Below are positions 1 to 13,730 of a DNA stretch of 13,730 nt, piece after piece. Every line of letters starts with the position of its first letter. The first letter of the stretch is position 1. Both the position numbers and the translations under genes were made by a program. Source of the DNA: a virus; the UHGV virus genome UHGV-0087644; one strand, 5' to 3'. Under the pieces are notes generated by a model. It saw only the letters and a program-made list of their open reading frames with translations. It was not told the DNA's origin and did not search any database.

Positions 1-68
1 CGAGTAAGTCCGTTATCAAGCGGATTTTTAATGAATAATTCGATACGTTCTTTGGTAATAGTGGTCAT
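1..68 (-). CDS. hypothetical protein, N-terminal fragment (3' end runs off the window)
   Basis: ATG at 68-66 preceded by SD-like AAGGTGA; reads MTTITKERIELFIKNPLDNGLT to the window edge. Only about 22 codons visible. Confidence 0.3.
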   Translation of the reverse strand, partial: MTTITKERIELFIKNPLDNGLT

Positions 69-263
69 AGCTATTTCACCTTAATCTCAACATTTCGCAG
101 CGTTAGCTCTACTGTCAGGTCTGACTTTCCTGTTAATGCTAATGCGATATTTTCTGGGGTAATGAGAGCAGTTATTGCTTACCCCATTGCCAGACGAATA
201 ATTATTCGTATTTCGCGATCGTCACATGCTCCTGGTCGAACGATTGATATTTGTCCGTCCATC

Positions 264-632
264 TCACTCCCCTTTGATGCGAATGCCAGCGGCGCGGATT
301 GCATCGATGACTTCAGAAACTTTGTATGCCATTACCGTTTGGTAATCATCGTGAAAATCTGTTCGATGAAGCATGCTGCTACGTTCCGGGAGCAGTATTT
401 CCCGCTCCTCCAGTTCTGCAATGCGTTTGCTTTGAGCTTCCAGTTCACCCAGTAGTGCCAGCACGGTAGCCGGATTAGCCTTGGCAATAAAATCCCGGAC
501 TGGCTTACAATCAATCTCCGCACTACCGTGACGAATAACGAAAAAATCACCGTTTATTTTTTTAGCTTGCCACTTATCTTTACCGGCTTTCACTGCCACA
601 TCACGCAGTGCCTGATAGTCAATCTCGCTCAC
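264..632 (-). CDS. hypothetical phage protein (possibly Ead/Ea22-like, tentative)
   Basis: 122-aa ORF in track; GTG start at 632-630 preceded by strong SD AAGGAGG; overlaps upstream gene by 14 nt. Family label is from memory of an ANPATVLALLxELE-type motif only. Confidence 0.55.
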   Translation of the reverse strand: MSEIDYQALRDVAVKAGKDKWQAKKINGDFFVIRHGSAEIDCKPVRDFIAKANPATVLALLGELEAQSKRIAELEEREILLPERSSMLHRTDFHDDYQTVMAYKVSEVIDAIRAAGIRIKGE

Positions 633-1113
633 TGGTTACCTCCTTCATAAAAATAATCCAGTGGGTCTTGTCACCCTTTCCTGTTCGTTGACCGATAACA
701 GGCTTTCTGTCGGTCAGTGCCAATATCTGGCGAACAGGTATTTGCGTTTCATTCCATTTAAAAATCAGAACGCCGTATGGCCACAACACACGAAAGGCTT
801 CTTTGAATCCCTGCCGTAAATCATCACGCCAGGTATCTTTATTCAGCCGTCCATATTTCTTTCCCATCCAGGCGTTATCACCAACACGCTCAAGATGCGG
901 AGGGTCGAATACAACCATCGAAAAGGATGCGTCTGCAAATGGTAGTGCACGAAAATCAGCCATCAGGTCAGGACTGATAATCAGGCGTCGTCCATCACAC
1001 AATGTGTGCTCTTCCTTTCTGATATCGCTAAATATCGCCCGGTCGTCATTCTTATCGAACCAGAACATGCGACTACCACAGCACATGTCGAGGATTGCTG
1101 CATGTCCAGTCAC
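619..1113 (-). CDS. small SAM-dependent methyltransferase, probably DNA N6-adenine/N4-cytosine type
   Basis: 164-aa ORF; motif-I-like ILDMCCGS near N-terminus and motif-IV-like VVFDPPH about 60 aa later; GTG start at 1113 with strong SD AAGGAGG, overlapping upstream stop (GTGA). Target and base specificity not determinable by eye. Confidence 0.55.
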   Translation of the reverse strand: MTGHAAILDMCCGSRMFWFDKNDDRAIFSDIRKEEHTLCDGRRLIISPDLMADFRALPFADASFSMVVFDPPHLERVGDNAWMGKKYGRLNKDTWRDDLRQGFKEAFRVLWPYGVLIFKWNETQIPVRQILALTDRKPVIGQRTGKGDKTHWIIFMKEVTSERD

Positions 1114-1802
1114 TGGTTGCCTCCTTTGCGAAGCTGGGCATCGGTATTGATGCGACTAAAATAGAATCCGAATACTTTCTTCCATGGCTTAACAACAGCG
1201 TCCCTGATTGAGTTTGGGTTAAATCCAGCCTCGATGGCCTGTTTGCTGTCAAAGAACACATACCCAAAACCTTCCTCGTTCTCAGCGCAGACTGGACCTT
1301 TATACGAACCGTGTTTTCTTCCCCCGGCCAGACCTGTTCTATATGCGTGCTGAGTGTTGCCCGCTACCGTCGTCCACTCCAGGTTTGAAACATCATTGTT
1401 TTGTTTATTCCCGTCTATATGGTTAATTACGTGCTCATCAGAAGGCTTAGGGCCGAGAAAGTTTTCAGCAACTAATCGGTGGATGTTCACGCCTTTTAGT
1501 TTTCCTTCAAGCTCCAGCCTAACGAATAAATACTGATTTCTGTTCTTGCCGCGCATGGTTGGGTTTAATTGCTTTAGTTCGCCAGAGGCCAATGAGAAAA
1601 TGAGTCCCTTTGAGGTGATGAAATAGCGATACTTAAAACCAAAAATCTCTTTCACATCGCCAAATAAGTCAGCCAGCGCCGCGCACTTGGCCTCCGCTTC
1701 AGCAAATTTACGCACCAGATATTCAGCGTTTGTTTCGTTAACCTTTAAATCACTTGGGATGCATTTACCTTTCAGAAATCCATCCATCTCAATTAGTGTC
1801 AT
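1110..1802 (-). CDS. HNH homing-endonuclease-like protein (NUMOD4 + HNH_3 type)
   Basis: Track ORF 1110-1829; contains [17 protein letters not shown] (NUMOD4-like) then [20 protein letters not shown] (HNH_3 signature). Start chosen at ATG 1802, which overlaps the upstream stop (ATGA); 1811 or GTG 1829 are alternatives. Confidence 0.7.
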
Positions 1803-1972
1803 TTGTTCCATTTCTTCCCACTCCGCCACATTGCATTCAGATATTTGTTGTCATTAACAGAACCGAAACTATTTCTCTTAAGCAATTCCTCTCTCGATGG
1901 CATTGGCTTTACGCGTTGGCGAATAATCATTTCTGCCGGAAGAATGCCGGGATTGTATGCAAGTCCTCTCAT
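1799..1972 (-). CDS. hypothetical small protein (57 aa)
   Basis: Sub-ORF of track ORF 1799-2122; ATG at 1972 preceded by GAGGA; stop overlaps HNH start. The longer track version would overlap the upstream gene extensively. Confidence 0.3.
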
Positions 1973-1982
1973 TGTAAATTCC

Positions 1983-2276
1983 TCAGTCATTACTGATAGC
2001 GCCATAGCGTGAGCGGTAATTACGCAGGCGCGGGTCAATTTCAGGGAAGTGGGTATATGTGGCTTTGCGGAATGGTCGGATTGATGTCTGGTAAATTCGC
2101 TCGCGTTCTTCTTTCTCTGCAAGCCATATACAGTGGCGAAATTCCTTTTCCTCTTTCGTTTCCTGCGGTAGAGACATTATTCGATCGTAGTTTTTTCTGA
2201 ATTTATCCAGCACCTCCGATACGGAATTGCCGGAACAGCGGCGCGGGTCATCCGCACCATACAAAGGCGCTGGCAT
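1983..2276 (-). CDS. hypothetical protein, possibly anti-RecBCD Abc2-like (P22 abc2 position and size)
   Basis: 97-aa ORF with SD AAGGAT before ATG 2276; sits distal to erf as abc2 does in P22. Assignment is by position, size and partial sequence recall, not a search. Confidence 0.45.
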
Positions 2277-2299
2277 AATTAAATCCTTATTTTTCTAAA

Positions 2300-2683
2300 T
2301 CAGAATGGGATGGAATCGTCGTATACAGGAGTGTTCTGCTGGTTACTACTTTGCTGCTGCGGGCCATTTCCTGAAGCTGCAAATCCAATCTTTGCATTCA
2401 GTAATTCAAGAGTGATTGATTGACCATTTTGCCCCTGATAAATATCAACCCTGATGTTTTCTCCGGTAATTTCAACAATGCCACCTTCAACAAGAACACT
2501 ACGGTAGTAATCCGCTTGCGCTCCCGGCTTGGCAAATACAACGGAGCTGTAGTTTGTCCATTCTTTCTTTTTTGTCTGGCGATCGTAATACTGAACGCCA
2601 GCACGGATGTTGAATCCGATATTTTCCCCGGTATGAAACTCTCTTGCGGGCTTGTTTAGTCTTACGGTAATCGAATGTGCCAT
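2300..2683 (-). CDS. mini single-stranded-DNA-binding (SSB-like, OB-fold) protein
   Basis: Start at internal ATG 2683-2681, overlapping erf stop (TAATG); 127 aa ending in DDSIPF, the canonical SSB acidic C-terminal tail, preceded by a Gly/Gln-rich linker and OB-fold-like N-terminal region. Confidence 0.55.
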   Translation of the reverse strand: MAHSITVRLNKPAREFHTGENIGFNIRAGVQYYDRQTKKKEWTNYSSVVFAKPGAQADYYRSVLVEGGIVEITGENIRVDIYQGQNGQSITLELLNAKIGFAASGNGPQQQSSNQQNTPVYDDSIPF

Positions 2684-3288
2684 TAAGCAGCAGCTCCTTC
2701 TAATTCGTCTCGTCTGATGTTGTAAACGTCCTGCGCTTTGTGCTGCTCCGGTGTGCCTTCGAGCATCTTCCACGCTTTGGCGAACGCCTGTTTAAGCTCT
2801 TCTACGGTGTTTTTCTGCATTGCTGCGTCAGTGAATGCTTTTAGAACCTGTTCAGGTGTAGGTGATGGTTTTGATTGCTTTGCTGCTGCGTTCTGCTGAT
2901 GTTTATGCTCGTCGGTATCTGCATCTTTCGCATCATCAATGCCGAACAAACCATTGAGGCAATACTTGCGTGCATAAGAGCTTGTAGCTCCCGTAACTTG
3001 TGCAGAATCCATTCCTTTCTTGCTTTCTTCCTCTCGTGCAAGAGCGGTTGCCGTATGACTGTTTTCGCCATCGGTAATAGTTGCCGTGGCTTTCACGTAA
3101 TACCGATCACCAATCAACACAACTTCATCGCTGATTGATAAAAACAGACCATTCAGTAACGGCTTAACGCCTTCAAGAATGTCTTCGCAGCTTCTGTATT
3201 TATATTTACCGAATGAGTTGTACTGATTCTTTGGCGCGTTCAGATTCTCCTGAATGGCTGCCAGCCTTGCATAAAATTCTTTGCTCAT
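2683..3288 (-). CDS. erf: Erf, essential recombination function (ssDNA annealing) protein
   Basis: Track ORF 2683-3318; sequence from MSKEFYARLAAIQENLNAPKNQYNSFGKYKYRSCEDILEG matches my recollection of P22 Erf. Start placed at ATG 3288 because the 3318 start is a TTG without SD. Confidence 0.8.
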   Translation of the reverse strand: MSKEFYARLAAIQENLNAPKNQYNSFGKYKYRSCEDILEGVKPLLNGLFLSISDEVVLIGDRYYVKATATITDGENSHTATALAREEESKKGMDSAQVTGATSSYARKYCLNGLFGIDDAKDADTDEHKHQQNAAAKQSKPSPTPEQVLKAFTDAAMQKNTVEELKQAFAKAWKMLEGTPEQHKAQDVYNIRRDELEGAAA

Positions 3289-3389
3289 ATGTTTGATCTC
3301 AGAATGGACACGGCCCAAGGAAATAACGCTGATTTAATACTTCGACTCGGGACAAATTAAGGCATACCCGCATTCCTTCGCGGTCGCCA

Positions 3390-3548
3390 TTATGGCGATA
3401 CCAGAGAGCTTTCTGCGTGTACATGCGTCTCTGTAACTTGCTCTCCTTCACTGTGGTTGCAAGTGACATGAATATCTCCTTCGTTACCGATTAATTCTTT
3501 CATCTGACGAATGAATTCTTCGTCTGACCAGTTATCTGTAAAACTCAT
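3390..3548 (-). CDS. small protein in the Arf (accessory recombination function) position
   Basis: 52-aa ORF (MSFTDNWSDEEFIRQMKEL...) not in the track (<60 aa); ATG overlaps kil stop (ATGA); lies between kil and erf as arf does in P22. Position-based call. Confidence 0.4.
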   Translation of the reverse strand: MSFTDNWSDEEFIRQMKELIGNEGDIHVTCNHSEGEQVTETHVHAESSLVSP

Positions 3549-3697
3549 TTCCTGCGATACCACGGAAGGTTGATAGCTGATTTCATCGCTTTATTTGCTT
3601 CAATCCACATTTTTGAATCACCAATAAATCTGGCTATTACTGCTTTGTTCTGTGCTGCACGAAGCATCTGGTGATTGATGGCTATTTCATTGCGCAT
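3545..3697 (-). CDS. kil: Kil-like host cell-division inhibitor
   Basis: 50-aa ORF not in track: MRNEIAINHQMLRAAQNKAVIARFIGDSKMWIEANKAMKSAINLPWYRRK; resembles lambda Kil (FIGD-containing core) from memory; immediately downstream of cIII, start overlapping the cIII end. Confidence 0.55.
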   Translation of the reverse strand: MRNEIAINHQMLRAAQNKAVIARFIGDSKMWIEANKAMKSAINLPWYRRK

Positions 3698-3813
3698 AAT
3701 AAGACCTCAACTCTTTTCCATCCGTCACGTAATTTACGGGTGATTCGTTCAAGTAAAGATTCATTTAGTTGGAAGGCACCCATGCGAGCGCCTCCCGCGA
3801 TTGCGTAAATCAT
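3682..3813 (-). CDS. cIII: CIII, FtsH/HflB protease inhibitor
   Basis: 43-aa ORF not in track; contains ESLLERITRKLRDGWKR, matching the conserved lambda CIII core; ATG at 3813 preceded by SD AAGGAA. Confidence 0.8.
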   Translation of the reverse strand: MIYAIAGGARMGAFQLNESLLERITRKLRDGWKRVEVLLCAMK

Positions 3814-3837
3814 GGGTGGTTCCTTATGTTGGTTTTA

Positions 3838-4806
3838 TTAGTAGGTTATTTTTGTTGCGAATACTTCGCCTTTTACGATGGCTGTTATGATATTTTTAGC
3901 AACATCTTCTGATGCGCCAACCTTGATAAGGTCAGCAAGTATTTTGTTATTTACTTCTTTCCGGTGAGCTTTATCCTTTGCTCTACGCTCTTCTTCGTCC
4001 TTGATTCTTTTTCCTTCTGCTATTCTGGCTTGCTCTTTTGCTTCAGCCTCGCGCCGGATTCGTTCAGCCTCCTCCTGTGCTTTTCGGCGTTCTGCTTCAA
4101 TTGCCGCCTGCTTTTCTCTTTCAGCTCGTTCTGCTGCCTCTTTTGCTTCGCGCTGTGCTCGTTGCTCGGCTTCAATGCGTTCACGCTCTGCACGTTCCGC
4201 TGCGGCCTTAGCTTCTGCTTCTCGCCTTGCTGCTGCTTCAATTTCGGCTTTTGCCTTTGCTTCGGCTTCTGCTCTGGCTTTCTCTTCAGCTTCTCTTTTT
4301 AAGCGTTCTTCATACTCTCGCTTTTCCTGCTCCGCTTTGAGTCTTGCCTCTTCTCTTTGGCGGTCAAATTCGCGATCCATCAAAATAGCTATTTCATGGT
4401 CAGACTCAATTTGCTTTGCGAGAGCTTCAGCTGCTGCCTTAGCTTCTTCTTCGGCTTTAATCCGTGCCTGTTCCTCCTCATAATCAGTAAGAGGCTGGCG
4501 CGCCTTGGCTTTCAGTTCATCAAGGCGATCGCGCACTGTCTTGCGGTTGGCATCAATTAGCTTTGGAATTTCCTTCAGTTCAGCAACAAGGTCTTTGCCA
4601 AGACCATCGAGATATGTTTTCGTCTGCGCAACTTTATACGCCAGAGAAGCGATCTCCTTTCTGCCCTTTGCCGTTGTGATATCAGGCACAAAGGACATAA
4701 CTTCACGTTCAACCCTTTGAAGGATTTCTTCAATCTGGTCGGCAGACTGAAATACAGTCATTGCATTTGCTTTTTCAATAACAACTAAATCTGTTACTTC
4801 ACTCAT
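3838..4806 (-). CDS. coiled-coil protein with long E/R/K/A-rich helical segment, function unknown
   Basis: 322-aa track ORF; ATG 4806 with SD GGAGG; folded-looking N-terminal about 110 aa, then about 160 aa of charged low-complexity helix (EAEAKAKAEIEAAARREAEAKAAAERAERE...), then short C-terminal domain ending KITY. Confidence 0.7.
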   Translation of the reverse strand: MSEVTDLVVIEKANAMTVFQSADQIEEILQRVEREVMSFVPDITTAKGRKEIASLAYKVAQTKTYLDGLGKDLVAELKEIPKLIDANRKTVRDRLDELKAKARQPLTDYEEEQARIKAEEEAKAAAEALAKQIESDHEIAILMDREFDRQREEARLKAEQEKREYEERLKREAEEKARAEAEAKAKAEIEAAARREAEAKAAAERAERERIEAEQRAQREAKEAAERAEREKQAAIEAERRKAQEEAERIRREAEAKEQARIAEGKRIKDEEERRAKDKAHRKEVNNKILADLIKVGASEDVAKNIITAIVKGEVFATKITY

Positions 4807-4818: not shown

Positions 4819-4846
4819 AAAAAATTGCCCTCACACTGGAGGGCAA
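4819..4846 (-). terminator. rho-independent terminator candidate (minus strand) just upstream of the coiled-coil gene
   Basis: Perfect 8-bp stem TTGCCCTC/GAGGGCAA (4825-4832 / 4839-4846) with 6-nt loop; A6 run at 4819-4824 on the plus strand gives a U-run after the hairpin on the minus transcript. Confidence 0.55.
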
Positions 4847-4937
4847 AGAAGATTTCCAATAATCAGAACAAGTCGGCTCCTGTTTAGTTACGAGCGACAT
4901 TGCCCACATAGCAGACTCGCAAATCTGCTATATGTGC

Positions 4938-5099
4938 TTATTCGCATCGCATGACAACATCAAATTTTTCGAGATTACTTTGTCGCAACAATCCCTCTTC
5001 TACGCGGTCAGCTTTTCTATAATTATCAAATTCGAAATGTTTAATTACTTCTTTCGTTTCTCGCTCTATAACTTCAACGATGTATTTCTTATTCATCAT
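4938..5099 (-). CDS. hypothetical small protein (53 aa)
   Basis: ORF MMNKKYIVEVIERETKEVIKHFEFDNYRKADRVEEGLLRQSNLEKFDVVMRCE, not in track; ATG overlaps upstream stop (ATGA). Confidence 0.3.
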   Translation of the reverse strand: MMNKKYIVEVIERETKEVIKHFEFDNYRKADRVEEGLLRQSNLEKFDVVMRCE

Positions 5100-5395
5100 T
5101 CTTCCCCAAGAGCTTTGCTGATTGCTGACTGTGCTTTCGATACTTCATCAGGATAATGGTCATTCCAGTTTTGCTTGTATGCCTTGTTTAGCATCGCTTG
5201 CAGGGCATTTAAAAGGTCTGGTGCTGCCGCTATCAGATTCATATCTTCTTTGCTAACGATTAGTGATGAGTGACCATCCTTCATGACATAAGAGTCGATG
5301 ACACCACCATCTTTACCTGTTGCTTGACTGCTTAATCGCAGAAAGCTGTTACTTGTCCACCATTTCCATGGGCCGGGTGTATAATTCATATTCAC
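5096..5395 (-). CDS. hypothetical phage protein (possibly Ead/Ea22-like C-terminal region, tentative)
   Basis: 99-aa track ORF; SD GAGGTG before tandem ATGs at 5395/5389; LIAAAPDLLNALQAM motif recalled from Ea22-like prophage proteins. Confidence 0.5.
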   Translation of the reverse strand: MNMNYTPGPWKWWTSNSFLRLSSQATGKDGGVIDSYVMKDGHSSLIVSKEDMNLIAAAPDLLNALQAMLNKAYKQNWNDHYPDEVSKAQSAISKALGEE

Positions 5396-5428
5396 CTCTG
5401 TTGTTTACGCCAAAAATAAAGGCCACCA

Positions 5429-5629
5429 TCAGGCAGCCTTGTTATTCTGTTTACCAAGTTCTCTGGCAATCATTGCCGTCGTTCGTATTGCCCATTTATC
5501 GACATATTTCCCATCTTCCATTACAGGAAACATTTCTTCAGGCTTAACCATGCATTCCGATTGCAGCTTGCATCCATTGCATCGCTTGAATTGTCCACAC
5601 CATTGATTTTTATCAATAGTCGTAGTCAT
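5429..5629 (-). CDS. ral: Ral-like restriction-alleviation protein
   Basis: 66-aa track ORF MTTTIDKNQWCGQFKRCNGCKLQSECMVKPEEMFPVMEDGKYVDKWAIRTTAMIARELGKQNNKAA; matches my recollection of lambda Ral (same length, same N-terminus). Confidence 0.6.
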   Translation of the reverse strand: MTTTIDKNQWCGQFKRCNGCKLQSECMVKPEEMFPVMEDGKYVDKWAIRTTAMIARELGKQNNKAA

Positions 5630-5699
5630 ACGGATAGTCCTGGTATTGTTCCATCACATCCTGAGGATGCTCTTCGAACTCTTCAAATTCTTCTTCCAT
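5613..5699 (-). CDS. possible 28-aa highly acidic peptide
   Basis: ATG 5699 preceded by GAGGTG; MEEEFEEFEEHPQDVMEQYQDYPYDYDY; overlaps ral start by 17 nt in another frame. Could be spurious. Confidence 0.2.
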   Translation of the reverse strand: MEEEFEEFEEHPQDVMEQYQDYPYDYDY

Positions 5700-5842
5700 A
5701 TCTCACCTCAAATAAGTGGTTTGCTGCGAAAGTAAATACGCTTAAGTTACCTGTTATTTATCCCACCAAGTTCCGTATCTATCTATCCAGTTACACCAAT
5801 CGTCAAACCCCAGCGATTTTTGTTTGCCGCTTCGATATTTGG

Positions 5843-6025
5843 TCAGCGTACCTCTACTCCTGATGCGCCTCCATCGGGGTCAGGCGACCCATTAAAAGAC
5901 TTTCTGTGCTGAATTTCGTAACGAAGCGTCTTAATCGAAACGTCCACGGCATCGGCAAAACTGATGCCTTCTTCATTGGCCAGTTCCTGAACTACTCTTT
6001 TCAGTTCATTGTCCAAATTTTCCAT
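5843..6025 (-). CDS. hypothetical small protein (60 aa)
   Basis: Track ORF 5843-6049 trimmed to ATG 6025, preceded by AGGGGTGAGGG; MENLDNELKRVVQELANEEGISFADAVDVSIKTLRYEIQ... Confidence 0.45.
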   Translation of the reverse strand: MENLDNELKRVVQELANEEGISFADAVDVSIKTLRYEIQHRKSFNGSPDPDGGASGVEVR

Positions 6026-6100
6026 ACCCTCACCCCTTTGTTTATTCACCGCAGGCCACTCGACCCGCTCGATTCGTTCTGTGCGTAATGCTTGCGCCGA

Positions 6101-6259
6101 TCAGACACCCCAAACTCTGAACCACCAACGAAGAAACATGACGACTGGCGGGGTAGACAGAAGAATGGCCGCATTGATAAGAAGAATGGCCGCAGTGATA
6201 AGCAGACCCAAAATGACCCCCTGCACTACGACCGGGAGTTTTTCATACAGTTTTTTCAT
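6101..6259 (-). CDS. small single-pass membrane peptide (52 aa)
   Basis: Not in track; SD AAGGAG 5 nt before ATG 6259; MKKLYEKLPVVVQGVILGLLITAAILLINAAILLSTPPVVMFLRWWFRVWGV has one hydrophobic helix; contains an in-frame 21-bp tandem duplication. Confidence 0.4.
   Translation of the reverse strand: MKKLYEKLPVVVQGVILGLLITAAILLINAAILLSTPPVVMFLRWWFRVWGV
6160..6201. repeat. 2 x 21-bp tandem direct repeat (one mismatch) inside the membrane-peptide ORF
   Basis: GAAGAATGGCCGCATTGATAA / GAAGAATGGCCGCAGTGATAA; in-frame, encoding duplicated LITAAIL/LINAAIL heptads. Confidence 0.6.
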
Positions 6260-6261
6260 GG

Positions 6262-6764: not shown

Positions 6765-6874
6765 GGGCCACCTCAGATTAATGCGATGGATTTGCCCTTC
6801 GTTTTCTGGCGACCAACACAAGTCACACCCATTTCACTACGTGGCTTGCGGTAGTAAATTATATTTGTTCAGAC

Positions 6875-7242: not shown

Positions 7243-7544
7243 TAAGCACCGTACGGTAGTTTACTGTACAATTTTATTTTTTGGACTGCATGTATTTTGT
7301 TTCCTAACGGGTTTGAATCTTTGTAATAAATACTTCTATTTTTTCGAACGACTTCTTCTTTCTTCTTGCAGCAAAGGCTTCCTAGTGATGCTGCTTTGTC
7401 TGCTCTGACGCAACCAGAGAGCTTTAGCGCAATTTTTCGCGCCAGTGCTTCATTACTGCGTCGCTCGGCAATAAGTTCTGCTCTGCGAGCTTTGTAGCGG
7501 CTTTTTGCCGTACCTTTGGATTCTTTCCAGACAATGGTTACCAT
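7239..7544 (-). CDS. N: N-like transcription antitermination protein (phi21-type arginine-rich motif)
   Basis: Track ORF 7239-7574 trimmed to ATG 7544 (SD AGGAG); N-terminus MVTIVWKESKGTAKSRYKARRAELIAERR matches the phi21 N arginine-rich RNA-binding peptide as I recall it; nutL lies upstream. Confidence 0.75.
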   Translation of the reverse strand: MVTIVWKESKGTAKSRYKARRAELIAERRSNEALARKIALKLSGCVRADKAASLGSLCCKKKEEVVRKNRSIYYKDSNPLGNKIHAVQKIKLYSKLPYGAY

Positions 7545-7654: not shown

Positions 7655-7695
7655 TCTCAACGGTTAGGTTGAGAGTCCGCCGATGTTAAAGAGCC
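7655..7695 (-). promoter_or_regulatory. nutL: boxA plus boxB hairpin
   Basis: Minus-strand reading: boxA GCTCTTTAACA (plus 7684-7695), 9-nt spacer, boxB with 7-bp stem TCTCAAC/GTTGAGA and loop CUAACC (plus 7655-7674). Between the predicted pL and N. Confidence 0.6.
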
Positions 7696-7740: not shown

Positions 7741-7770
7741 AATTTAAGACTTCTTAATTTATTGGTCAAG
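7741..7770 (-). promoter_or_regulatory. pL promoter candidate with overlapping oL operator
   Basis: Minus strand: -35 TTGACC (plus 7764-7769), about 17-bp spacer, weak -10 TAAATT; perfect palindrome TTAAGACTTCTTAA at 7744-7757 overlaps the spacer/-10. Confidence 0.4.
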
Positions 7771-7834
7771 TGCATTTTTGAAGAAAACTTAATTTTATGG
7801 GCGTGAATTTAGTTTGTCTTTGATTTTTAACGGG

Positions 7835-7860
7835 AAATAAAAAAGGGGCGAAAGCCCCTT
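7835..7860 (-). terminator. rho-independent terminator for the cI transcript
   Basis: Stem AAGGGGC/GCCCCTT (7843-7849 / 7854-7860) with GAAA loop, followed on the minus strand by UUUUAUUU; overlaps the cI stop codon. Confidence 0.55.
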
Positions 7861-8509
7861 AAGGAAGGTTTGCTAGCTTGGCATCAACGACAACGCCAAT
7901 GATTTTACAGTTCCCATTGATTTCAATCATTGGGTATTGTGGATTGAGTGGTTTCAGGAATTTTCTACCGGCATCAATAACTAACTTTTTGAATGTCGCC
8001 TCGTTTTCCCCTTCAAGTTTGGCGACTACCAGCTTTCCATTACGTGGTTCGACTTCTGGGTCGACGAGAATAATCATCCCCTCAGGAATACTCAGTCCTG
8101 CCGGGGCAGTCATTGAATCGCCTTTAACGTCGAGCCAAAAAGAGTCTTCAGAACAATCTACCGTTGTGTCGTACCAGTTATCTATTGCACGCCTATGATA
8201 TGGCTCTACAGCTTCCATCCAACATCCTGCGCTTACCCAACTAATTAGAGGATACGAACCTCTTGGATCATGCCTGCTGTGATAGGCAATGTTTGAAAGA
8301 CTATCCTCTCCTTTCAACAGGTAATCAGGGGAGCACTGCAAAGCCTTGGCTAAGGCCAATAGGTTTTCGCCATTGGGCTCAGTTTCAGATCGCTCCCATT
8401 GGGAAATAGCAACATTAGACACGCCAACCATCTTGCCAAGGGCAGCCTGCCTAATCTTGAGTTCTTTTCTGCGAGCGCGAATACGCTCACCCATCAGTTG
8501 TGTATTCAT
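7859..8509 (-). CDS. cI: CI-type prophage repressor (HTH + S24 LexA-like peptidase domain)
   Basis: 216-aa track ORF; N-terminal HTH (QAALGKMVGVSNVAISQWER); C-terminal FWLDVKGDSMTAPAGLSIPEGMIILVDP...ATFKKL...FLKPLNPQYPMIE closely parallels the lambda CI C-terminal domain. Confidence 0.9.
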   Translation of the reverse strand: MNTQLMGERIRARRKELKIRQAALGKMVGVSNVAISQWERSETEPNGENLLALAKALQCSPDYLLKGEDSLSNIAYHSRHDPRGSYPLISWVSAGCWMEAVEPYHRRAIDNWYDTTVDCSEDSFWLDVKGDSMTAPAGLSIPEGMIILVDPEVEPRNGKLVVAKLEGENEATFKKLVIDAGRKFLKPLNPQYPMIEINGNCKIIGVVVDAKLANLP

Positions 8510-8589
8510 AGTTAAGACATCTTAAATAAACTTGACTTAAGATTCCTTTGGTGGATAATTTAAGTGTTCTTTAACTTCGGAGCGAGTCT
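8510..8589. promoter_or_regulatory. oR operator region with divergent pR / pRM promoters
   Basis: Palindrome TTAAGACATCTTAA (8512-8525); pR -35 TTGACT (8532-8537) and -10 GATAAT (8554-8559); degenerate operator-like TTAAGTGTTCTTTAA (about 8559-8574); SD GGAG before cro ATG 8590. Confidence 0.65.
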
Positions 8590-8775
8590 ATGTACAAAAA
8601 AGATGTTATTGACCACTTCGGAACCCAGCGTGCTGTTGCTAAAGCACTAGGCATTAGCGATGCAGCAGTCTCTCAGTGGAAAGAAGTTATCCCAGAGAAA
8701 GACGCCTATCGATTGGAAATCGTTACAGCTGGCGCCCTGAAGTATCAAGAAAGTGCTTACCGCCAAGCGGCATAA
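8590..8775 (+). CDS. cro: Cro-like repressor (YdaS/Cro HTH family)
   Basis: 61-aa track ORF immediately downstream of pR, divergent from cI; HTH region GTQRAVAKALGISDAAVSQW. Confidence 0.75.
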   Translation: MYKKDVIDHFGTQRAVAKALGISDAAVSQWKEVIPEKDAYRLEIVTAGALKYQESAYRQAA

Positions 8776-8781: not shown

Positions 8782-8822
8782 TGCTCTTTAACAGTTCTGG
8801 CCTTTCACCTCTAACCGGGTGA
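8782..8822 (+). promoter_or_regulatory. nutR: boxA plus boxB hairpin
   Basis: boxA TGCTCTTTAACA (8782-8793), 11-nt spacer, boxB stem UCACCU/GGGUGA (one G-U pair) with loop CUAACC (8805-8822), the same loop as nutL. Confidence 0.6.
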
Positions 8823-8890: not shown

Positions 8891-9187
8891 ATGGCACAAG
8901 CAAGCTACAGCAAGCCAACACAGCGAGAAATTGATCGCGCTGAAACTGATTTACTCATCAACCTGTCAACGCTTACCCAGCGCGGTCTGGCAAAGATGAT
9001 TGGCTGTCATGAATCGAAGATAAGCAGAACGGACTGGCGGTTTATTGCTTCGGTCCTGTGTGCTTTCGGAATGGCATCAGACATCAGTCCGATTAGCAGG
9101 GCTTTTAAGTATGCGCTTGATGAAATCACAAAGAAAAAATCCCCGGCCGCCACCGAGGATTTTAAGCAAATTGATATGCAATTCTGA
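8891..9187 (+). CDS. cII: CII transcriptional activator
   Basis: 98-aa track ORF; ...LAKMIGCHESKISRTDWRFI... and C-terminal KKKSPAATEDFKQIDMQF parallel lambda CII (HTH and C-terminal tail). Confidence 0.85.
   Translation: MAQASYSKPTQREIDRAETDLLINLSTLTQRGLAKMIGCHESKISRTDWRFIASVLCAFGMASDISPISRAFKYALDEITKKKSPAATEDFKQIDMQF
8900..8913 (-). promoter_or_regulatory. candidate CII-binding site (TTGC-N6-TTGC) of a pRE-like leftward promoter
   Basis: Plus strand GCAAGCTACAGCAA, i.e. TTGC-N6-TTGC on the minus strand, inside the first codons of cII, where lambda pRE lies. Confidence 0.4.
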
Positions 9188-9219
9188 GTGAATTACTGGA
9201 TCAATCCACAGGAGTAATT

Positions 9220-9381
9220 ATGACAAAACGTCGTAAGAAATACCAGGAAAAAGAAGAGATTCGACACCCTGATTCACCTGAGGGATTAGTGGTAGCCGCA
9301 GCAAATAACAGGGCGTTCGCAGAGCGCCTTGTTGGTGTTTACAGACTAGCCAAAGCAGGAGTGAAACATGGGCGTCGTTAA
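9220..9381 (+). CDS. possible small basic protein (53 aa) between cII and O
   Basis: Not in track; ATG 9220 preceded by AGGAG; [53 protein letters not shown]; 3' end overlaps the O start by 14 nt. Confidence 0.3.
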   Translation: MTKRRKKYQEKEEIRHPDSPEGLVVAAANNRAFAERLVGVYRLAKAGVKHGRR

Positions 9382-10198
9382 GTTAGCTGATTACAGGCCT
9401 CAACTGGAGGTCGTGGAGCATCGCGTGGCAGAACTCGAAGATGGCTACACTCGGACTGCAAACACACTGTTAGAAGCCGCCATGCTTTCTGGACTTACTC
9501 TACATCAGTTACTGATTGTTATGGCTGTGTGGCGCAAGACATACGGTTACAACAAAAAAATAGATTGGATCGGAAACGAACAGTTCGCTGAACTCACTGG
9601 CATGGCACCAACCAAATGCTCTACCGCCAAAAACGAGCTTATCAGAATGGGAGTTCTCATTCAGGTTGGGCGTCAAGTTGGTATGAATACAAACATTTCC
9701 GAGTGGAAAACGAAAGTTAACGGATTCGGTAAAACATTTACCAATTCGGTAAAACAAACCTTCACCAAATCGGTAAAAAGCAATTTACCGAATCAGTCAA
9801 ACACAAAAGACAATATACAAAAGACAATAAATACAAATACCCCCTTACCCCCTAACGGGGATGGCGATGGGCAGGTTAAACCTGAACGTCGCAAGGCAGA
9901 ACGAATCGACTACGAATCCTTCCTGAACGCCTACAACACCGAAGTCGGTGACAGACTTCCACACGCTGTTGCGGTCAACGAGAAACGAAAACGCCGCCTG
10001 AAGAAAATCATCCCGCAACTGAAAACGCCAAACGTGGACGGTTTCAGGGCGTATGTCAGGGCTTTTGTGCATCAGGCCAAGCCGTTTTACTTCGGAGACA
10101 ACGACACGGGCTGGACGGCTGATTTTGATTACCTGCTTAGGGAAGACTCGTTAACGGGAGTTCGGGAAGGGAAGTTTGCAGACAGGGGGATTGCATGA
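9368..10198 (+). CDS. O: replication initiation protein O homolog
   Basis: 276-aa track ORF after cII; SD AGGAG; iterons and an A/T-rich stretch inside the coding region; stop overlaps helicase start (ATGA). Confidence 0.75.
9724..9840. repeat. origin of replication: iterons plus A/T-rich region inside the O gene
   Basis: Direct repeats ATTCGGTAAAAC (9724-9735, 9744-9755), ATCGGTAAAAAG (9768-9779), inverted copy TTTACCGAAT (9784-9793), then A-rich 9801-9840. Confidence 0.6.
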
Positions 10199-11571
10199 AA
10201 CAGGATATCGAAGCGAGCGTTATCGGTGGCCTGCTGATTGGTGGATTAACACCAACCGCCAGCGACGTTCTGGCAACGCTGGATCCGGAAGCGTTTTCAA
10301 TTCCACTCTACCGGAAAGCCTTCGAGGTTATCCGCAAGCAGGCGAGAAACAGAAACCTAATCGATGCGCTGATGGTTGCCGAGGCGTGCGGAGAGGAGCA
10401 TTTCACGTCAATCCTGATGACCAGCAAAAACTGCCCGAGTGCCGCAAACCTGAAGGGATATGCCGGAATGGTCGCGGATAACTATCACCGCCGTCTGGTT
10501 CTGGAAATCATGGATGAAATGCGTGAACCAATTCAGAGCGGAACCATCGACGCATCGAGTCAGGCGATGGATGAGCTTGTAAAGCGTCTTTCAGCCATCA
10601 GAAAGCCCCGTGACGAGGTTAAACCTGTACGGTTAGGGGAAATCATCACTGACTACACTGACACGCTTGACAGGCGCCTGAGGAACGGAGAAGAGTCAGA
10701 TACCCTGAAGACCGGAATCGAAGAACTTGACGCCATCACCGGAGGGATGAACGCAGAAGACCTGGTGATAATCGCTGCTCGTCCTGGTATGGGGAAAACC
10801 GAGCTGGCGCTGAAGATTGCCGAAGGCGTTGCAAGCCGAGTTATTCCTGGTTCTGACGTCCGGCGCGGAGTGTTGATTTTCTCGATGGAAATGAGCGCAT
10901 TGCAGATTGCAGAGCGAAGCATTGCCAACGCCGGGAGGATGTCGGTTAGCGTGCTGCGAAATCCTGCATCGATGGATGACGAAGGCTGGGCGCGCGTTGC
11001 TAACGGCATGAGTCAGCTTGCAGATTTGGATGTATGGGTAGTCGATGCCTCGCGGTTATCGGTCGAAGAAATACGCTCAATCGCAGAACGGCACAAACAG
11101 GAAAATCCAAACCTGTCACTCATCATGGCGGATTATCTTGGCCTGATTGAGAAGCCGAAAGCAGACCGCAACGACCTCGCAATTGCTCACATCTCCGGAA
11201 GCCTGAAGGCGATGGCGAAAGACCTGAAAACGCCAGTTATCTCCCTGAGTCAGCTTTCGCGCGATGTTGAGAAGCGACCAAACAAACGTCCGACAAACGC
11301 AGATTTGCGTGATTCTGGAAGCATTGAGCAGGACGCAGACTCAATCATCATGCTCTATCGGGAAGCTGTATATGACGAGAACAGTAGCGCCGCGCCATTT
11401 GCTGAAATCATTGTGACGAAAAACCGTTTTGGCTCACTTGGTACGGTTTACCAGCGGTTCTGCAACGGACACTTTGTTGCATGTGACCAGGATGAAGCCA
11501 GACAGATTTGCACAGCATCAAATGCACCTGCTGCGCGTGGCAGACGATATGCACAAGGGGCTGACGTATGA
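10195..11571 (+). CDS. DnaB-family replicative DNA helicase (P22 gene 12-like)
   Basis: 458-aa track ORF; Walker [14 protein letters not shown]; DnaB-like N-terminal region and RecA-like C-terminal domain; coupled to O. Confidence 0.85.
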
Positions 11572-11651
11572 CCATCTACATCACTGAGCTGATAGCAGGC
11601 CTGCTGGTAATCGCAGGCCTTTTTATTTGGGGGAGGGTAAATCGTGGCTGA
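11568..11651 (+). CDS. possible 27-aa hydrophobic peptide
   Basis: ATG overlaps helicase stop (ATGA); [27 protein letters not shown]. Could be spurious. Confidence 0.2.
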
Positions 11652-11850
11652 GTTAATTTTCTCTGCATTGAGGATTCTCGGTGCTATGTGGATGGTGGCG
11701 ACGTTCATTGTTGTTGCCAGCAGTTTTGTCCGGTTGGTAGGCGAAGGTAAAGACCTGGTGGGTGTGCTTTTCGGTAGCATTTTCCTGTGGGTGATTATCG
11801 GTGTTATGCCTGTCGCTGTAGCAAAAATGGCGTGGCGTTTTGTGAGTTGA
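11644..11850 (+). CDS. small membrane protein with two predicted TM helices (68 aa)
   Basis: Track ORF; GTG start preceded by GGGGGAGG; two hydrophobic segments. Confidence 0.4.
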   Translation: MAELIFSALRILGAMWMVATFIVVASSFVRLVGEGKDLVGVLFGSIFLWVIIGVMPVAVAKMAWRFVS

Positions 11851-11867
11851 ACTGAGGGTAAGTATCG

Positions 11868-12188
11868 ATGGACGAATCAAGAAAGCAGTTTGAAGAAAGT
11901 TGGTTGCGACGTGGAGGCGAATCCTCAGACCTTATCCGTTACCCTGAAAATCACCATGAAATTGGCAGTGGTAATATTGGTGGTCAATATGTGATGGACG
12001 ATGTTCAAGGCCACTGGCAAACGTGGCAGGCATCGCGATCAGCTATTGAAATAACCGCGCCAAAGTTCATCGACAGCAGAGAAGCATTAGCCAAAGGGTT
12101 TACTGTTGATTATTCCAATGGCTTCGGCGATGGAATGGATGCTTATGAGGAAAACATCCGCGCCGTTGGAGTCAAAGTGAAGGAGTGA
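11868..12188 (+). CDS. hypothetical protein (106 aa), start of nin region
   Basis: Track ORF; SD GAGGG; stop overlaps next gene. Confidence 0.5.
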   Translation: MDESRKQFEESWLRRGGESSDLIRYPENHHEIGSGNIGGQYVMDDVQGHWQTWQASRSAIEITAPKFIDSREALAKGFTVDYSNGFGDGMDAYEENIRAVGVKVKE

Positions 12189-12190
12189 CG

Positions 12191-12601
12191 ATGAAGCAAA
12201 CAATCTTCCTCCGTGGTAAACAACAACAGCAAGCCGCAATCAACGCCATCCTCGCAACACCACTCGATAAAGACAAGCCAGTTACCATCCGCATTACTGA
12301 CTACAAGCGCAACCTTGACCAGAACGCAAAATTTCACGCGATGCTGGCGGATATCGCACGTCAGGTTCAATGGTGCGGAAAATGGTTAAAACCGGAACAA
12401 TGGAAGGTTTTGTTGATCAGCGGTCATGCAGTGGCAACAAAACAGGAAGCTGATGTTTTGCCCGGGCTTGAAGGCGAATACGTCAACATTCGCGAAAGTA
12501 GCGCGCAGATGAGTGTGAAGCGTATGGCAAGTCTGATTGAGTACACGACAGCATGGGCTATTGGTCAGGGTGTCAGATTTACCGACAGGAGGTACGAATG
12601 A
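12191..12601 (+). CDS. ninB: NinB (Orf-family recombination mediator)
   Basis: Track ORF 12185-12601 trimmed to ATG 12191 (SD AAGGAG); ...[27 protein letters not shown]... parallels lambda NinB (RSLDQNRKLWACLGDVSRQVEWHGRWL). Confidence 0.8.
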
Positions 12602-12774
12602 GACGACAGCGACGAAGCATCACCGACATCATCTGCGAAAACTGCAAATACCTTCCAACGAAACGCTCCAGAAATAAACGCAAGCCAATCCCAAAAGAAT
12701 CTGACGTAAAAACCTTCAATTACACGGCTCACCTGTGGGATATCCGGTGGCTAAGACATCGTGCGAGGAAATGA
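12598..12774 (+). CDS. ninE: NinE
   Basis: Track ORF 12553-12774 trimmed to ATG 12598, overlapping the NinB stop (ATGA); [58 protein letters not shown] matches my recollection of lambda NinE. Confidence 0.65.
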
Positions 12775-13130
12775 CAATGGATTATTCACAGTTAAGTGAT
12801 TTTGAAATTAACAGAATGGTAGGAGACATAATTTTTAAAGGCCTTTGGGCATGTAAACCGGAAACGTCAGGGAATAACACCAACAAATGGTATTACGGAA
12901 ATGCTGATACAACTTTTGAGCCATTAAACCCTTTACCTGACTACTGCAATGATCCTAGCGCCTCATGGCCGATTATTGAGAAATACAGGATTAGCATTAT
13001 CAATCTCGATGAAGACGAGTGGGGTGCACGTGGTGTGGCCTACTGTAAATCTAAGCGAGCTATACATGAAAATTCCCTCCGCGCCGCCATGATTGTCTTT
13101 CTCATGATGCAGGACGCCAATAATGCTTAG
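12771..13130 (+). CDS. hypothetical protein in the P22 ninX position (NinX-like, tentative)
   Basis: Track ORF 12735-13130 trimmed to ATG 12771, overlapping the NinE stop (ATGA); 119 aa. Confidence 0.45.
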
Positions 13131-13299
13131 CCCATCCCAATCCCTCCAATACCAGAAAGAAAGCGTCGAGCGGGCTTTAACGTGCGCTAACTGCGGTCAG
13201 AAGCTGCATGTGCTGGAAGTTCACGTGTGTGAGCACTGCTGCGCAGAACTGATGAGCGATCCGAATAGCTCAATGTACGAGGAAGAAGACGATGAATGA
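13123..13299 (+). CDS. ninF: NinF
   Basis: 58-aa ORF not in track; [58 protein letters not shown] matches my recollection of lambda NinF. Confidence 0.65.
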   Translation: MLSPSQSLQYQKESVERALTCANCGQKLHVLEVHVCEHCCAELMSDPNSSMYEEEDDE

Positions 13300-13730
13300 G
13301 TTAATAAATGGCAATGCCATCAAAATGACAAGCATTGAAATCGCTGAGTTGGTGGGTAAGCGTCATGACAATGTGAAACGTACCATCGAAACGCTGGCTA
13401 AAAATGGTGTTATCCGGCTTCCTCAAATTGAGGTTTCCGAAAGAATCAATAACTTAGGGTTCAATGTTCAGTACGAGCATTACGTCTTCGAAGGCGAACA
13501 AGGTAAGCGAGATAGTATTGTTGTTGTTGCCCAGTTGTCGCCAGAGTTCACCGCTCGCCTTGTTGACCGCTGGCGAGAGCTTGAAGAAGCTGCGGTTAAT
13601 ATCCCCAAAACGCTACCGGAAGCGTTGCGCCTTGCTGCTGATCTTGCTGAGCAGAAAATGCAACTGGAAAACCAGCTCGCAATTGCCGCACCTAAAGTTG
13701 AGTTTGCCGATCGCGTTGGCGAGGCCAGCG
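13292..13730 (+). CDS. Rha-family regulatory / antirepressor-like protein, 3' end beyond the window
   Basis: ATG overlaps NinF stop; MNELINGNAIKMTSIEIAELVGKRHDNVKRTIETLAKNGV resembles a Rha N-terminal domain, followed by an AntA/KilA-type region; open to the window edge. Confidence 0.6.
   Translation, partial: MNELINGNAIKMTSIEIAELVGKRHDNVKRTIETLAKNGVIRLPQIEVSERINNLGFNVQYEHYVFEGEQGKRDSIVVVAQLSPEFTARLVDRWRELEEAAVNIPKTLPEALRLAADLAEQKMQLENQLAIAAPKVEFADRVGEAS

Follow-up and report, generated by a model that had tools for sequence, protein, structure and literature searches.

The mosaicism of lambdoid bacteriophages and the joint transfer of their cI and cro genes are already established (PMC9836094), and the mechanism of Nun and its specificity for the lambda boxB have been described (PMC5386594). 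In phage 21 (OL657228), nun is missing and exo/bet/gam, kil, cIII, ea10, O and P are of lambda type; HK022 relies on put RNA and is without N; and the GenBank record of mEp235 (NC_019708) annotates both N and Nun. The DNA studied here (the window, meaning the whole stretch of 13,730 nt) was identified by its gene content and Pfam matches as a complete lambdoid early region belonging to an E. coli prophage, in which a leftward operon runs from N to ead on the minus strand, followed by cI and then by cro, cII, O, the helicase gene and the nin region on the plus strand. It shares the whole early-region synteny with lambda and is fully collinear in gene order with P22, HK97, CUS-3 and Kapi1. The phage 21 genes listed above are all absent from it.

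Every segment of the window has a relative of 95-100% identity somewhere, and identity to any one reference is strongly non-uniform both in the per-200-bp table and in the protein matrix. Phage 21 matches at 99-100% over 7401-9000 and is absent elsewhere except at ral, ninE and two linkers (97-99%). HK97 matches at 96-100% from erf to kil and in the O C-terminus and helicase, falls to 60-67% in the O N-terminus and is absent in the immunity region, and P22 ranges from absent up to 98%. Sequence of lambda grade is limited to ral (98%), ninE, part of ninF (96-97% for both nin genes) and two terminator linkers. Neither in 50,697 phage records nor in 5,426 complete E. coli genomes did any entry cover at least 80% of the window, the best coverage by a single record being 54% for phages (CUS-3, at 95% identity) and 65% for complete E. 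coli genomes, and a junction scan of IMG/VR gave partial matches only. These results agree with the proposal of the sequence-only reading that the modules derive from different lambdoid lineages, no one genome among these records having been found to match the whole window uniformly. The window is textbook phage mosaicism and already-understood biology, made of known gene blocks of several phage lineages.

We considered whether the window could be one known bacteriophage, or a uniformly diverged P22- or HK97-like one, in which differing evolutionary rates of the genes mimic a mosaic. The collinearity and the coverage reached by CUS-3 would fit this, but it is very improbable, given that identity is all-or-none with sharp edges: within O, HK97 passes from 100% to 60-67% and again to 96-97%, and phage 21 drops from 100% to unalignable. 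Whole genes are also exchanged for unrelated ones (Erf for RecT or Rad52 in otherwise close relatives, and lambda P for a DnaB-type helicase), and 80% coverage is reached by no record of either collection. We regard the window, with high confidence, as early-region DNA from a temperate lambdoid E. coli prophage whose immunity is of type 21, probably built by homologous recombination at short conserved linkers out of blocks in circulation among the lambdoid phages of E. coli and Salmonella. Three of the linkers are the following.

4819..4903, minus strand: 85-bp linker with a leftward terminator at 4846-4825 (terminator scan), mapping onto a terminator annotated in phage 21
6802..6859, minus strand: non-coding fossil of an N 3' end of phage-21/lambda type, 96.6% identical to phage 21 N codons ~72-90
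11568..11635, plus strand: tR2-type terminator linker with a hairpin at 11597-11620 (terminator scan)

Together with ninE and ninF, these linkers lie at the joints and are conserved across lambda, 21, P22, HK97 and others. The first is 95-100% identical to lambda, 21, HK97, HK022, mEp235 and CUS-3 despite differing flanks, and the third is 95-97% identical to both lambda and phage 21, its flanks being unrelated; against lambda, the two terminator linkers reach 96-99%. Homology with prophages having an intact N stops at the N fossil. Both terminator linkers are best read as mosaic joints, and the fossil as a joint and a recombination linker. A near-isogenic relative occurs naturally: GCA_011318135.1 is 99.7-99.8% identical over 1-4903 and over 5697-6859, and other ral and immunity blocks fill the space between the same linkers there. 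From the position of the breakpoints we infer recombination at these linkers.

Since the source of the window is a gut-metagenome scaffold and the joints lie on repeats common to prophages, where assemblers make chimeras, a mis-assembly of co-resident prophages was also weighed. The isolate assembly GCA_037640145.1 and an independent metagenome (ERZ27307110), however, both contain positions 1-11113 at 99.9% identity, which argues strongly against an artefact, and individual joints are present in finished genomes: mEp235, Kapi1, AF14 and A39 span 6798-9229, AF14 and A39 span 6798 to ~11636, and Kapi1 spans 9821-11850. Mis-assembly is thus a most unlikely origin for the mosaic. For the right-hand 2.6 kb (11114-13730), the source scaffold alone gave full confirmation, with overlapping partial matches elsewhere. 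The window matches the terminal part of that human-gut metagenome scaffold at 100% identity and an E. coli draft genome at 99.9%. Late genes were seen on the source scaffold.

The immunity region contains the following features.

7239..7544, minus strand: chimeric N antiterminator, residues 1-57 as in phage 21 N and residues ~62-101 as in the allele left as a fossil ahead of nun in HK022 (alignment)
7655..7694, minus strand: nutL, boxA 7694-7687 and boxB hairpin 7674-7655, both identical to the phage 21 annotation
7741..7860, minus strand: pL 7769-7741, OL1-3 7742-7823 and the terminator after cI 7860-7843 (mapped from phage 21 features; promoter/terminator scan)
7859..8509, minus strand: cI repressor of imm21 type, 216 aa (HTH_3 and Peptidase_S24, Pfam)
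8510..8775, plus strand: OR operators 8510-8575, pR 8532-8559 and cro 8590-8775 (mapped from phage 21; pR also in the promoter scan)
8783..8822, plus strand: nutR, boxA 8783-8790 and boxB hairpin 8805-8822, identical to the phage 21 annotation
8891..9187, plus strand: cII (PF05269), with a joint within its 3' third
8900-8913, minus strand: pRE CII site TTGC-N6-TTGC, inside cII
9163-9136, minus strand: oop-type terminator (terminator scan)

Positions 7399-9037 form one contiguous phage 21 block that takes in N (aa 1-57), nutL, pL/OL, cI, OR, cro, nutR and cII in its 5' half. Of its 1,639 bases, 6 differ from phage 21, all by substitution, and differences are dense outside. One of the six lies in the nutL spacer at 7680 and one at 8575 in the OR/pR/cro stretch; the stretch 7741..7860 has 0 indels and 0 substitutions. 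CI, Cro, N residues 1-57, the boxA and boxB of both nut sites, the OL operators, pL and pR are identical to those of phage 21. The arginine-rich motif of N (residues 8-29) is that of the phi21 N peptide in PDB 1NYB, so that the phi21 type previously assigned to this motif and to boxB was upheld. N departs from phage 21 N in its C-terminal 40 residues (80% aa identity overall), and the whole protein is 100% identical to mEp235 N; it is predicted to be active because the identical protein occurs in that viable phage. The cII gene departs from the phage 21 sequence starting at 9038.

The sequence-only map had joined phi21-type N/nut to cI, cII, cIII and kil of lambda type and to P22-derived erf and helicase genes. 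Family-level matches (Lambda_CIII, Lambda_Kil, Phage_CII), the 69% identity of CIII to lambda and the 75-94% identity of Erf, Abc2, O and the helicase to P22 proteins speak for it. CI, however, is 34% identical to lambda CI against 100% for phage 21 and 94% for P22 C2, for CII the identity is 35% to lambda, 89% to phage 21 and 99% to HK97, CIII matches lambda over 81% of its length against 100% identity to CUS-3, and Kil, although a member of Lambda_Kil, gave no tblastn match to lambda and is 98% HK97/HK022-type. For Erf and the helicase, identity to HK97/HK022/CUS-3 is 99-100%. As written, that map has hardly any likelihood of being correct: its core mosaic idea stands, and the repressor block has to be reassigned from lambda to phage 21. 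N/nut and cI/cro/cII are a single phage 21 immunity block rather than two lineages, with nothing lambda-like in the immunity region beyond the family level. Cro (PF14549) shows 100% identity with phage 21 and 98% with P22, and the best PDB matches of the CI DNA-binding domain are P22 C2 structures. The protein identities, the block alignment and these structure matches refute a lambda assignment of cI, cro and cII.

Downstream in the leftward operon the following genes were found.

3838..4806, minus strand: 322-aa coiled-coil ("TolA-like") protein (PHROG 1376), 98% identical to CUS-3 and E. coli prophages
3299..3813, minus strand: Arf-position small ORFs, kil 3545-3697 and cIII 3682-3813 (PF06301 and PF02061 above cut-off)
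1799..3288, minus strand: recombination module with DUF2737, abc2 1983-2276, SSB-like gp40 homologue 2300-2683 and erf 2683-3288 (Pfam)
264..632, minus strand: ead/Ea22-like gene (PF13935, E=1e-14), its left part (1-443) 97-98% identical to HK620/HK633-type

Erf (PF04404) and Abc2 (PF11043) scored above the Pfam cut-offs. The gp40 homologue, in the abc1 position, is SSB-like by PHROG 44 and ends in DDSIPF. Erf is 100% identical to HK97/HK022 and 75% to P22, and Abc2 is 94% identical to P22. At nucleotide level, the recombination genes and the helicase gene are 96-100% identical to HK97/HK022/CUS-3 vs 74-94% to P22, and DUF2737, abc2, gp40-like, erf and kil are shared with those phages at 92-100% aa. 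Their P22 type thus holds for the families, and the alleles are to be assigned to HK97/HK022/CUS-3. Likewise, of the Arf-position ORF and Abc2-like gene compared with P22, the latter was confirmed and the Arf-position ORFs showed no similarity to P22 Arf.

On the plus strand, replication and nin genes follow.

9220..10198, plus strand: 53-aa ORF and O initiator 9368-10198 (PF04492)
9717-9800 and 9803-9830, plus strand: ori inside O, four iterons and an A/T-rich stretch (repeat analysis)
10195..11571, plus strand: DnaB-type replicative helicase in place of lambda P (PF00772 and PF03796)
11644..13730, plus strand: nin region with a 68-aa membrane ORF and a 106-aa phiTE_015-family ORF, then nin genes (Pfam)
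12185-12601, 12598-12774, 12777-13130, 13123-13299 and 13292 onward, plus strand: ninB, ninE, ninX, ninF and the start of roi/antirepressor (Pfam, above cut-offs)

An intragenic joint lies in O at ~9800-9824: bases 9401-9800 are 93% identical to P22 and 60-67% to HK97, and those from 9801 onward 96-98% to HK97/CUS-3. The truly P22-like piece is this O N-terminus with the ori iterons (93% nt). The mapping of identity breakpoints suggested earlier gave sharp edges, and the lineage labels were only partly right. The helicase is 99% identical to HK97/CUS-3 and 90% to P22 gp12, with no match to lambda, and the O and helicase families, both above the Pfam cut-offs, bear out the expected replacement of lambda P. 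The predicted ninB/E/F were recovered, NinX in addition. NinB is the HK620 allele (98% to HK620/mEp235, 39% to lambda/P22), Roi is 99% identical to HK620/CUS-3, and several joints are visible in this region in the identity table.

Each relative also differs from the window. HK97, HK022 and CUS-3 carry other immunity regions, and CUS-3 another N and O N-terminus. mEp235, which matches 6798-9229 at 99.2% and shares the N fossil, cI, cro and cII, has another annealase, exonuclease and O, a helicase of 31% aa identity and other genes between nun and cIII, and lacks the ORFan cassette, ral, the methyltransferase and the HNH gene. P22 shares the NinE, NinX and NinF families and an O (gp18) of 78% identity, but its overall nucleotide identity is 72-94%, not 96-100%; its gene 24 (its N) and nut sites have another specificity and no match in the window, Arf and Abc1 have no counterpart, and sieB and gene 17 are absent. 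For lambda the O N-terminus is 41% identical, and N, exo, bet, gam, P, ren and rexAB have no counterpart.

Accessory genes had been expected at mosaic joints, and nun, a methyltransferase, an HNH endonuclease and an ORFan cassette all lie at identity breakpoints, which bears out that expectation.

6882..7291, minus strand: nun moron, -35 7291-7286, -10 7268-7263, coding sequence 6898-7227 and terminator 6899-6882 (terminator scan)
5728..6797, minus strand: ORFan cassette with a 60/68-aa ORF 5843-6049, 52-aa membrane ORF 6101-6259, 112-aa ORF 6262-6600 and 54-aa Zn-ribbon ORF 6600-6764
5397..5727, minus strand: ral block, ral 5429-5629 (PF11058, E=2e-48)
4938..5395, minus strand: two small cargo ORFs, 53 aa and 97/99-aa P22 Y8K6-family (PHROGs 6949 and 1273; PF27050 precomputed)
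1110..1829, minus strand: HNH homing-endonuclease ORF (PF13392, E=7e-14; PADLOC HEase)
619..1113, minus strand: orphan DNA methyltransferase, 164 aa (PHROG 954, E=8e-88; PADLOC MTase_II and oMTase)

The nun coding sequence (109 aa, its ORF extending to 7236) is 96.8% identical to HK022 at nucleotide level, within an HK022-type block at 6881-7356. Its product matches HK022 Nun (PDB 6ALG chain N) at 107 of 109 residues (98%) and mEp235 Nun at 100%, and the arginine-rich motif, H93, H98, H100, K106, K107 and W108 are intact. The promoter elements are identical to those annotated in O276.

By homology, CI21 would bind OL and OR and shut off pL and pR. On induction, the arginine-rich motif of N would read the phi21-type boxB of nutL and nutR, and N would then carry RNA polymerase through the 4846-4825 terminator, tR1 and the tR2-type terminator. 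The establishment of lysogeny would fall to CII, CIII and the oop region; Erf, the SSB-like protein and Abc2 would serve recombination and RecBCD control; and O would bind the four P22-type iterons within its own gene and recruit the phage-encoded helicase. The nun gene, the main item of cargo, has a promoter and a terminator of its own. Expression of Nun from the repressed prophage is predicted, as is its arrest of transcription in superinfecting phages with lambda-type nut sites, and the phi21-type nut sites of the prophage itself should stay untouched. The orphan methyltransferase, HNH endonuclease, Ral and four-gene cassette are further cargo at joints. These activities and the immunity specificity are deduced from identities, motifs and family memberships.

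The methyltransferase is 97.7% identical to an E. coli A33 prophage, where no HNH gene is adjacent. The HNH ORF, 97% identical to E. coli 19AR0254, is fused to ~50 N-terminal residues of an hkaH/HK97 gp37-type gene, its N-terminal 20% being 85-90% identical to HK97/HK620/CUS-3. The pair at 4938..5395 is 99.6% identical to E. coli SCU-308, and ral is the lambda/phage 21 allele (97-98% nt, 100% aa to both). The 112-, 52- and 60/68-aa ORFs of the cassette matched no family in Pfam, PHROG, PADLOC or NCBIfam, and the Zn-ribbon ORF gave weak PHROG matches only, to families of unknown function. The cassette forms a single 50%-identity cluster among 1.84 billion representatives, occurs in 3 of the 5,426 complete genomes and always follows N immediately downstream, irrespective of which type of N is present. 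The nun gene at 6898-7227 was absent from the earlier map.

The lambdoid early-region layout was complete in the 13,730-bp window according to the ORF map and Pfam searches, with divergent pL and pR operons around a CI-type repressor and nut sites past both promoters. The main elements were the following:

Minus strand: leftward operon, with N (7239-7544) first and the ead/Ea22-like gene (264-632) last
7859-8509, minus strand: CI-type repressor
After cI, plus strand: cro, cII, a 53-aa ORF, O, a DnaB-type helicase gene and the nin genes

The order N - cI - cro - cII - O - helicase - nin matched collinearly the annotations of lambda, P22, HK97 and phage 21. The Q, lysis, terminase and portal genes were on the remainder of the source scaffold, and Rfam at gathering thresholds gave no matches over the whole window.

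Megablast of the whole window gave a best single-record coverage of 54% (CUS-3) among 50,697 phage records and of 65% (the prophage of strain AF14) among 5,426 complete E. coli genomes, and no record in either collection covered 80% of the window despite hundreds of partial matches. As no known phage was collinear with it at uniform identity, the mosaic early region described by the sequence-only reading was borne out. A scan of IMG/VR with a 32-nt junction sequence (6783-6814) found three contigs, each spanning about 30% of the window at most. The window is a real but ordinary mosaic, in which familiar lambdoid modules are joined in a combination not named before. Judged by their closest relatives, these are of type 21 for immunity, HK97/CUS-3 for recombination and helicase, P22 for the origin and HK620 for the flanks, with a nun moron of HK022 type.

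The possibility that this combination arose by mis-assembly of the metagenome was considered unlikely. The window was 100% identical to the end of a scaffold from a human-gut metagenome (ENA ERZ28657548, scaffold_769), over its final 13.7 kb, and the same arrangement was found at 99.9% over 1-11113 in the draft assembly of an E. coli isolate (GCA_037640145.1) and in a second metagenome contig, in both of which the csc sucrose genes and dsdXA adjoin the prophage. In addition, finished genomes span individual joints. Only for 11114-13730 is the source scaffold the sole full-length witness.

Tiling by best local match, for which a set of 16 fetched references and relatives was used, showed that nearly all segments had a relative at 95-100% identity and that the best tiling takes about 12 different records. 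Its only gaps, 446-585 and 12814-12963, were both covered at 96-100% by other fetched loci. The G+C content was lowest near ral (39%) and highest in the helicase gene (54%). Identity per 200 bp, tabulated against the references, was all-or-none with sharp edges; such step-like profiles, together with the replacement of genes by non-homologous ones in otherwise close relatives, refute the alternative of a single, uniformly diverged lineage. The breakpoints fall on short stretches conserved between otherwise unrelated references, with ninE and ninF also serving as such stretches at joints besides these linkers:

4819-4903: linker of 85 bp, holding a terminator (4846-4825)
6802-6859: joint at a 58-bp remnant of the N 3' end
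11568-11635: joint at a tR2-type terminator linker

A near-isogenic natural relative, GCA_011318135.1, showed 99.7-99.8% identity in 1-4903 and 5697-6859 and carries other ral-region and N/immunity blocks between exactly the same linkers. The pattern of joints is that expected of homologous recombination at conserved boundary sequences, and we infer this mechanism from it. Lambdoid mosaicism and the co-transfer of cI and cro are established background (PMC9836094), and the window illustrates the modular theory of lambdoid phage evolution in a clean, quantified way, its sharp breakpoints lying on conserved linkers. Its value lies mostly in correct annotation and it matters little otherwise.

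Phage 21 (OL657228) could be aligned with the window over 7322-9227, and 7399-9037 differed from it by six substitutions and no indel. This block spans N codons 1 to about 49, nutL, pL, OL1-3, the post-cI terminator and cI, and continues through OR/pR, cro, nutR and the 5' half of cII. N/nut and cI had been read as separate lineages, and they proved to belong to this one imm21 block. The positions of the nut sites were carried over from the annotation of phage 21:

nutL, minus strand: boxA 7694-7687, boxB 7674-7655
nutR, plus strand: boxA 8783-8790, boxB 8805-8822

Both boxA and boxB elements were those annotated in OL657228, as is proper to cognate sites of a phi21-class N. Residues 8-29 of N matched without a difference the phi21 N peptide whose structure was solved in complex with boxB RNA (PDB 1NYB), which confirmed the assignment of the arginine-rich motif and boxB to the phi21 type.

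CI and Cro were 100% identical in amino acids to the phage 21 proteins; CI was 94% identical to P22 C2 and Cro 98% to P22 Cro, and the top solved-structure matches of the CI DNA-binding domain in PDB were P22 C2 entries. A lambda-type cI/cII module, as mapped in the sequence-only reading, is thus refuted by amino acid identities to lambda of only 34% for CI and 35% for CII; what holds is family-level membership of Peptidase_S24/HTH_3 and Phage_CII. OL1-3 were identical to those of phage 21 and OR had a single edge substitution. The predicted immunity type is, in consequence of its sequence, 21, and this immunity region, known from the laboratory since the 1950s, is still circulating nearly unchanged in present-day gut E. 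coli.

The substitution in OR, one of the six differences in the 1.6-kb block, is a C/T change at 8575 relative to both phage 21 and phage mEp235 (NC_019708), at the final base of the operator nearest cro. Separately, in the stored gene calls of the source scaffold and of GCA_037640145.1, cI is given a length of 119 aa (7665-8024 of locus L041, corresponding to 7859-8218 in the window). A truncated cI was rejected, this being a gene-calling artefact: the ORF is intact at 216 aa, and its product is the same as phage 21 CI.

Residues 1-57 of N corresponded to phage 21 N, and the approximately 40 C-terminal amino acids to a diverged, HK022-linked allele; the full-length protein, at 80% overall identity, is not the phage 21 N itself. 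N is a chimera, because an HK022-type block contributes its last 40 or so codons (7239-7356). The same N was found at 100% identity in mEp235, a viable phage. According to the alignment, the displaced phage-21-type N 3' end persists beyond nun as a non-coding fossil at 6802-6859. In the HK022 record (L017 8070-8184), the same 38 C-terminal N codons form a fossil immediately upstream of nun. This fossil and the N-nun arrangement suggest that the N-less layout of HK022 may derive from an N-nun ancestor.

The nun gene, which stands out among the cargo, had not been listed in the earlier reading. It lies in the region 6882-7291 of the minus strand, directly downstream of the phi21-type N, and 6881-7356 showed 96.8% identity to HK022. 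The protein shared 107 of 109 residues with HK022 Nun (PDB 6ALG chain N), S11R and D63E being the sole differences, and both the Nun ARM (20-44) and residues H93, H98, H100, K106, K107 and W108 were intact. Its predicted signals were as follows:

-35 at 7291-7286 and -10 at 7268-7263, minus strand: putative nun promoter
6899-6882, minus strand: nun terminator, a hairpin with a T-run

The promoter positions were taken from the GenBank annotation of O276, whose -35 and -10 elements are identical in the window, giving nun a promoter of its own by sequence, which would permit its expression while the prophage is repressed. Since it is flanked by this predicted promoter and a terminator, nun would be a classic promoter-gene-terminator moron. 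The whole N-nun-imm21 module was present at 99.2% in mEp235, where both N and Nun are annotated. The N-nun tandem was also found in 217 of the 5,426 complete E. coli genomes; RefSeq calls both genes 'hypothetical protein', and neither product was matched by NCBIfam models. Nun arrests RNA polymerase on transcripts bearing lambda boxB (PMC5386594). Self-interference in this prophage would not be expected, because its own nut sites are of phi21 type. Given the frequency of the tandem, Nun-mediated exclusion of phages with lambda nut sites may exceed what annotation implies.

The recombination module had been taken as that of P22. The families did agree, with Pfam matches to Erf (PF04404, E=2e-44) and Abc2 (PF11043, E=6e-64), but the alleles of DUF2737, abc2, the SSB-like gp40 homologue, erf and kil were those of HK97/HK022/CUS-3 (91-100% in amino acids), the P22 proteins being 75-94% identical. 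Homologues of P22 Arf and Abc1 were not found: tblastn of the ORFs at 3299-3563, in the Arf position, and at 2300-2683 against P22 gave no matches. The abc1 position (2300-2683, minus strand) is occupied by an SSB-like protein of PHROG 44 with a C-terminal DDSIPF. This HK97 gp40-like protein, encoded beside erf, matched the phage SSB PHROG and was unmatched in Pfam. Its complete ending, YDDSIPF, is similar to the acidic tip at the C-terminus of bacterial SSB.

The lambda-like character of cIII and kil held at the level of Pfam families, with scores above the gathering cut-offs (Lambda_CIII, 56.0 bits against 25.7; Lambda_Kil, 69.2 against 27.6), but their nearest alleles were from CUS-3 and HK97, not lambda. 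The cIII product is a 43-aa protein of CUS-3 type, 69% identical to lambda across 81% of its length. The ral block (5397-5727) was the lambda/21 allele (98% in nucleotides, 100% in amino acids).

Replication by O plus a DnaB-type helicase, instead of lambda P, was correctly anticipated: O (PF04492) and the helicase (PF00772 and PF03796) were identified in Pfam, and the helicase ORF at the P position had no match to lambda. Four iterons lie inside O at 9717-9800. Bases 9401-9800 of O, including the iterons, were 93% identical to P22 and 60-67% to HK97, and from about 9800-9824 the O C-terminus and the helicase were of HK97/CUS-3 type (96-98%). These identities make O itself chimeric, at a joint that matches the known two-part layout of this protein, with one domain for origin binding and the other on the helicase side. 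The intragenic joint is directly past the A/T-rich stretch of the ori region (9717-9830). In the nin region, also as proposed, NinB, NinE and NinF, plus NinX, were all above Pfam cut-offs. The ninB gene was the HK620/mEp235 allele (98%, with only 39% to either lambda or P22), ninE and ninF were near-universal, and roi was of HK620/CUS-3 type.

Accessory cargo was found where it had been predicted, at mosaic joints: nun, a methyltransferase, an HNH endonuclease and a cassette of four small ORFans adjoining N downstream. Mosaicism and each component are already known. The ORFs of the cassette were as follows:

5728-6797, minus strand: cassette ORFs, encoding a 54-aa Zn-ribbon protein, a 112-aa helical protein, a 52-aa membrane protein and a 60/68-aa protein

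None of the 112-, 52- and 60/68-aa ORFs matched a family of Pfam, PHROGs, PADLOC or NCBIfam, and the Zn-ribbon ORF gave only weak PHROG matches to families of unknown function. For the 112-aa protein, a word-indexed search returned two clusters only, 99% identical, and exhaustive phmmer over 1.84 billion representatives returned one real 50%-identity cluster and one spurious repeat protein; the exact protein is widespread, being indexed in 822 blocks of a large collection. Its single-sequence AlphaFold2 model (mean pLDDT 53) was too poor to use. No relatives of the cassette were detected beyond E. coli-type lambdoid prophages, and three of the 5,426 complete E. coli genomes had it in full. At all loci examined it was directly downstream of N, irrespective of the type of N or of immunity/repressor. 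It is conceivable, although we regard it as rather doubtful, that the cassette is an uncharacterised early-expressed accessory system (e.g., for superinfection exclusion or host takeover) spreading by recombination through the conserved N 3' end.

At the left end, the two cargo genes overlap by 4 bp:

619-1113, minus strand: orphan DNA methyltransferase
1110-1829, minus strand: HNH endonuclease ORF, with the N-terminus of an hkaH/HK97 gp37-type gene

The HNH ORF retains about 50 N-terminal residues of that gene, which looks as though it had been invaded by a homing endonuclease. The two ORFs are adjacent only in this prophage lineage (nine contigs), each occurring alone elsewhere. A restriction-modification pair was considered and rejected: because each gene was found without the other in complete genomes and the junction (1107-1140) is a breakpoint, they are not a conserved pair. 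Of the cargo ORFs, PADLOC matched two and no others, namely the homing endonuclease and the methyltransferase, the latter as an orphan. Finally, the hkaF homologue at 179-262 (minus strand) is probably a pseudogene, because its codon 28 is the stop TAA where HK620 and HK633 have AAA.
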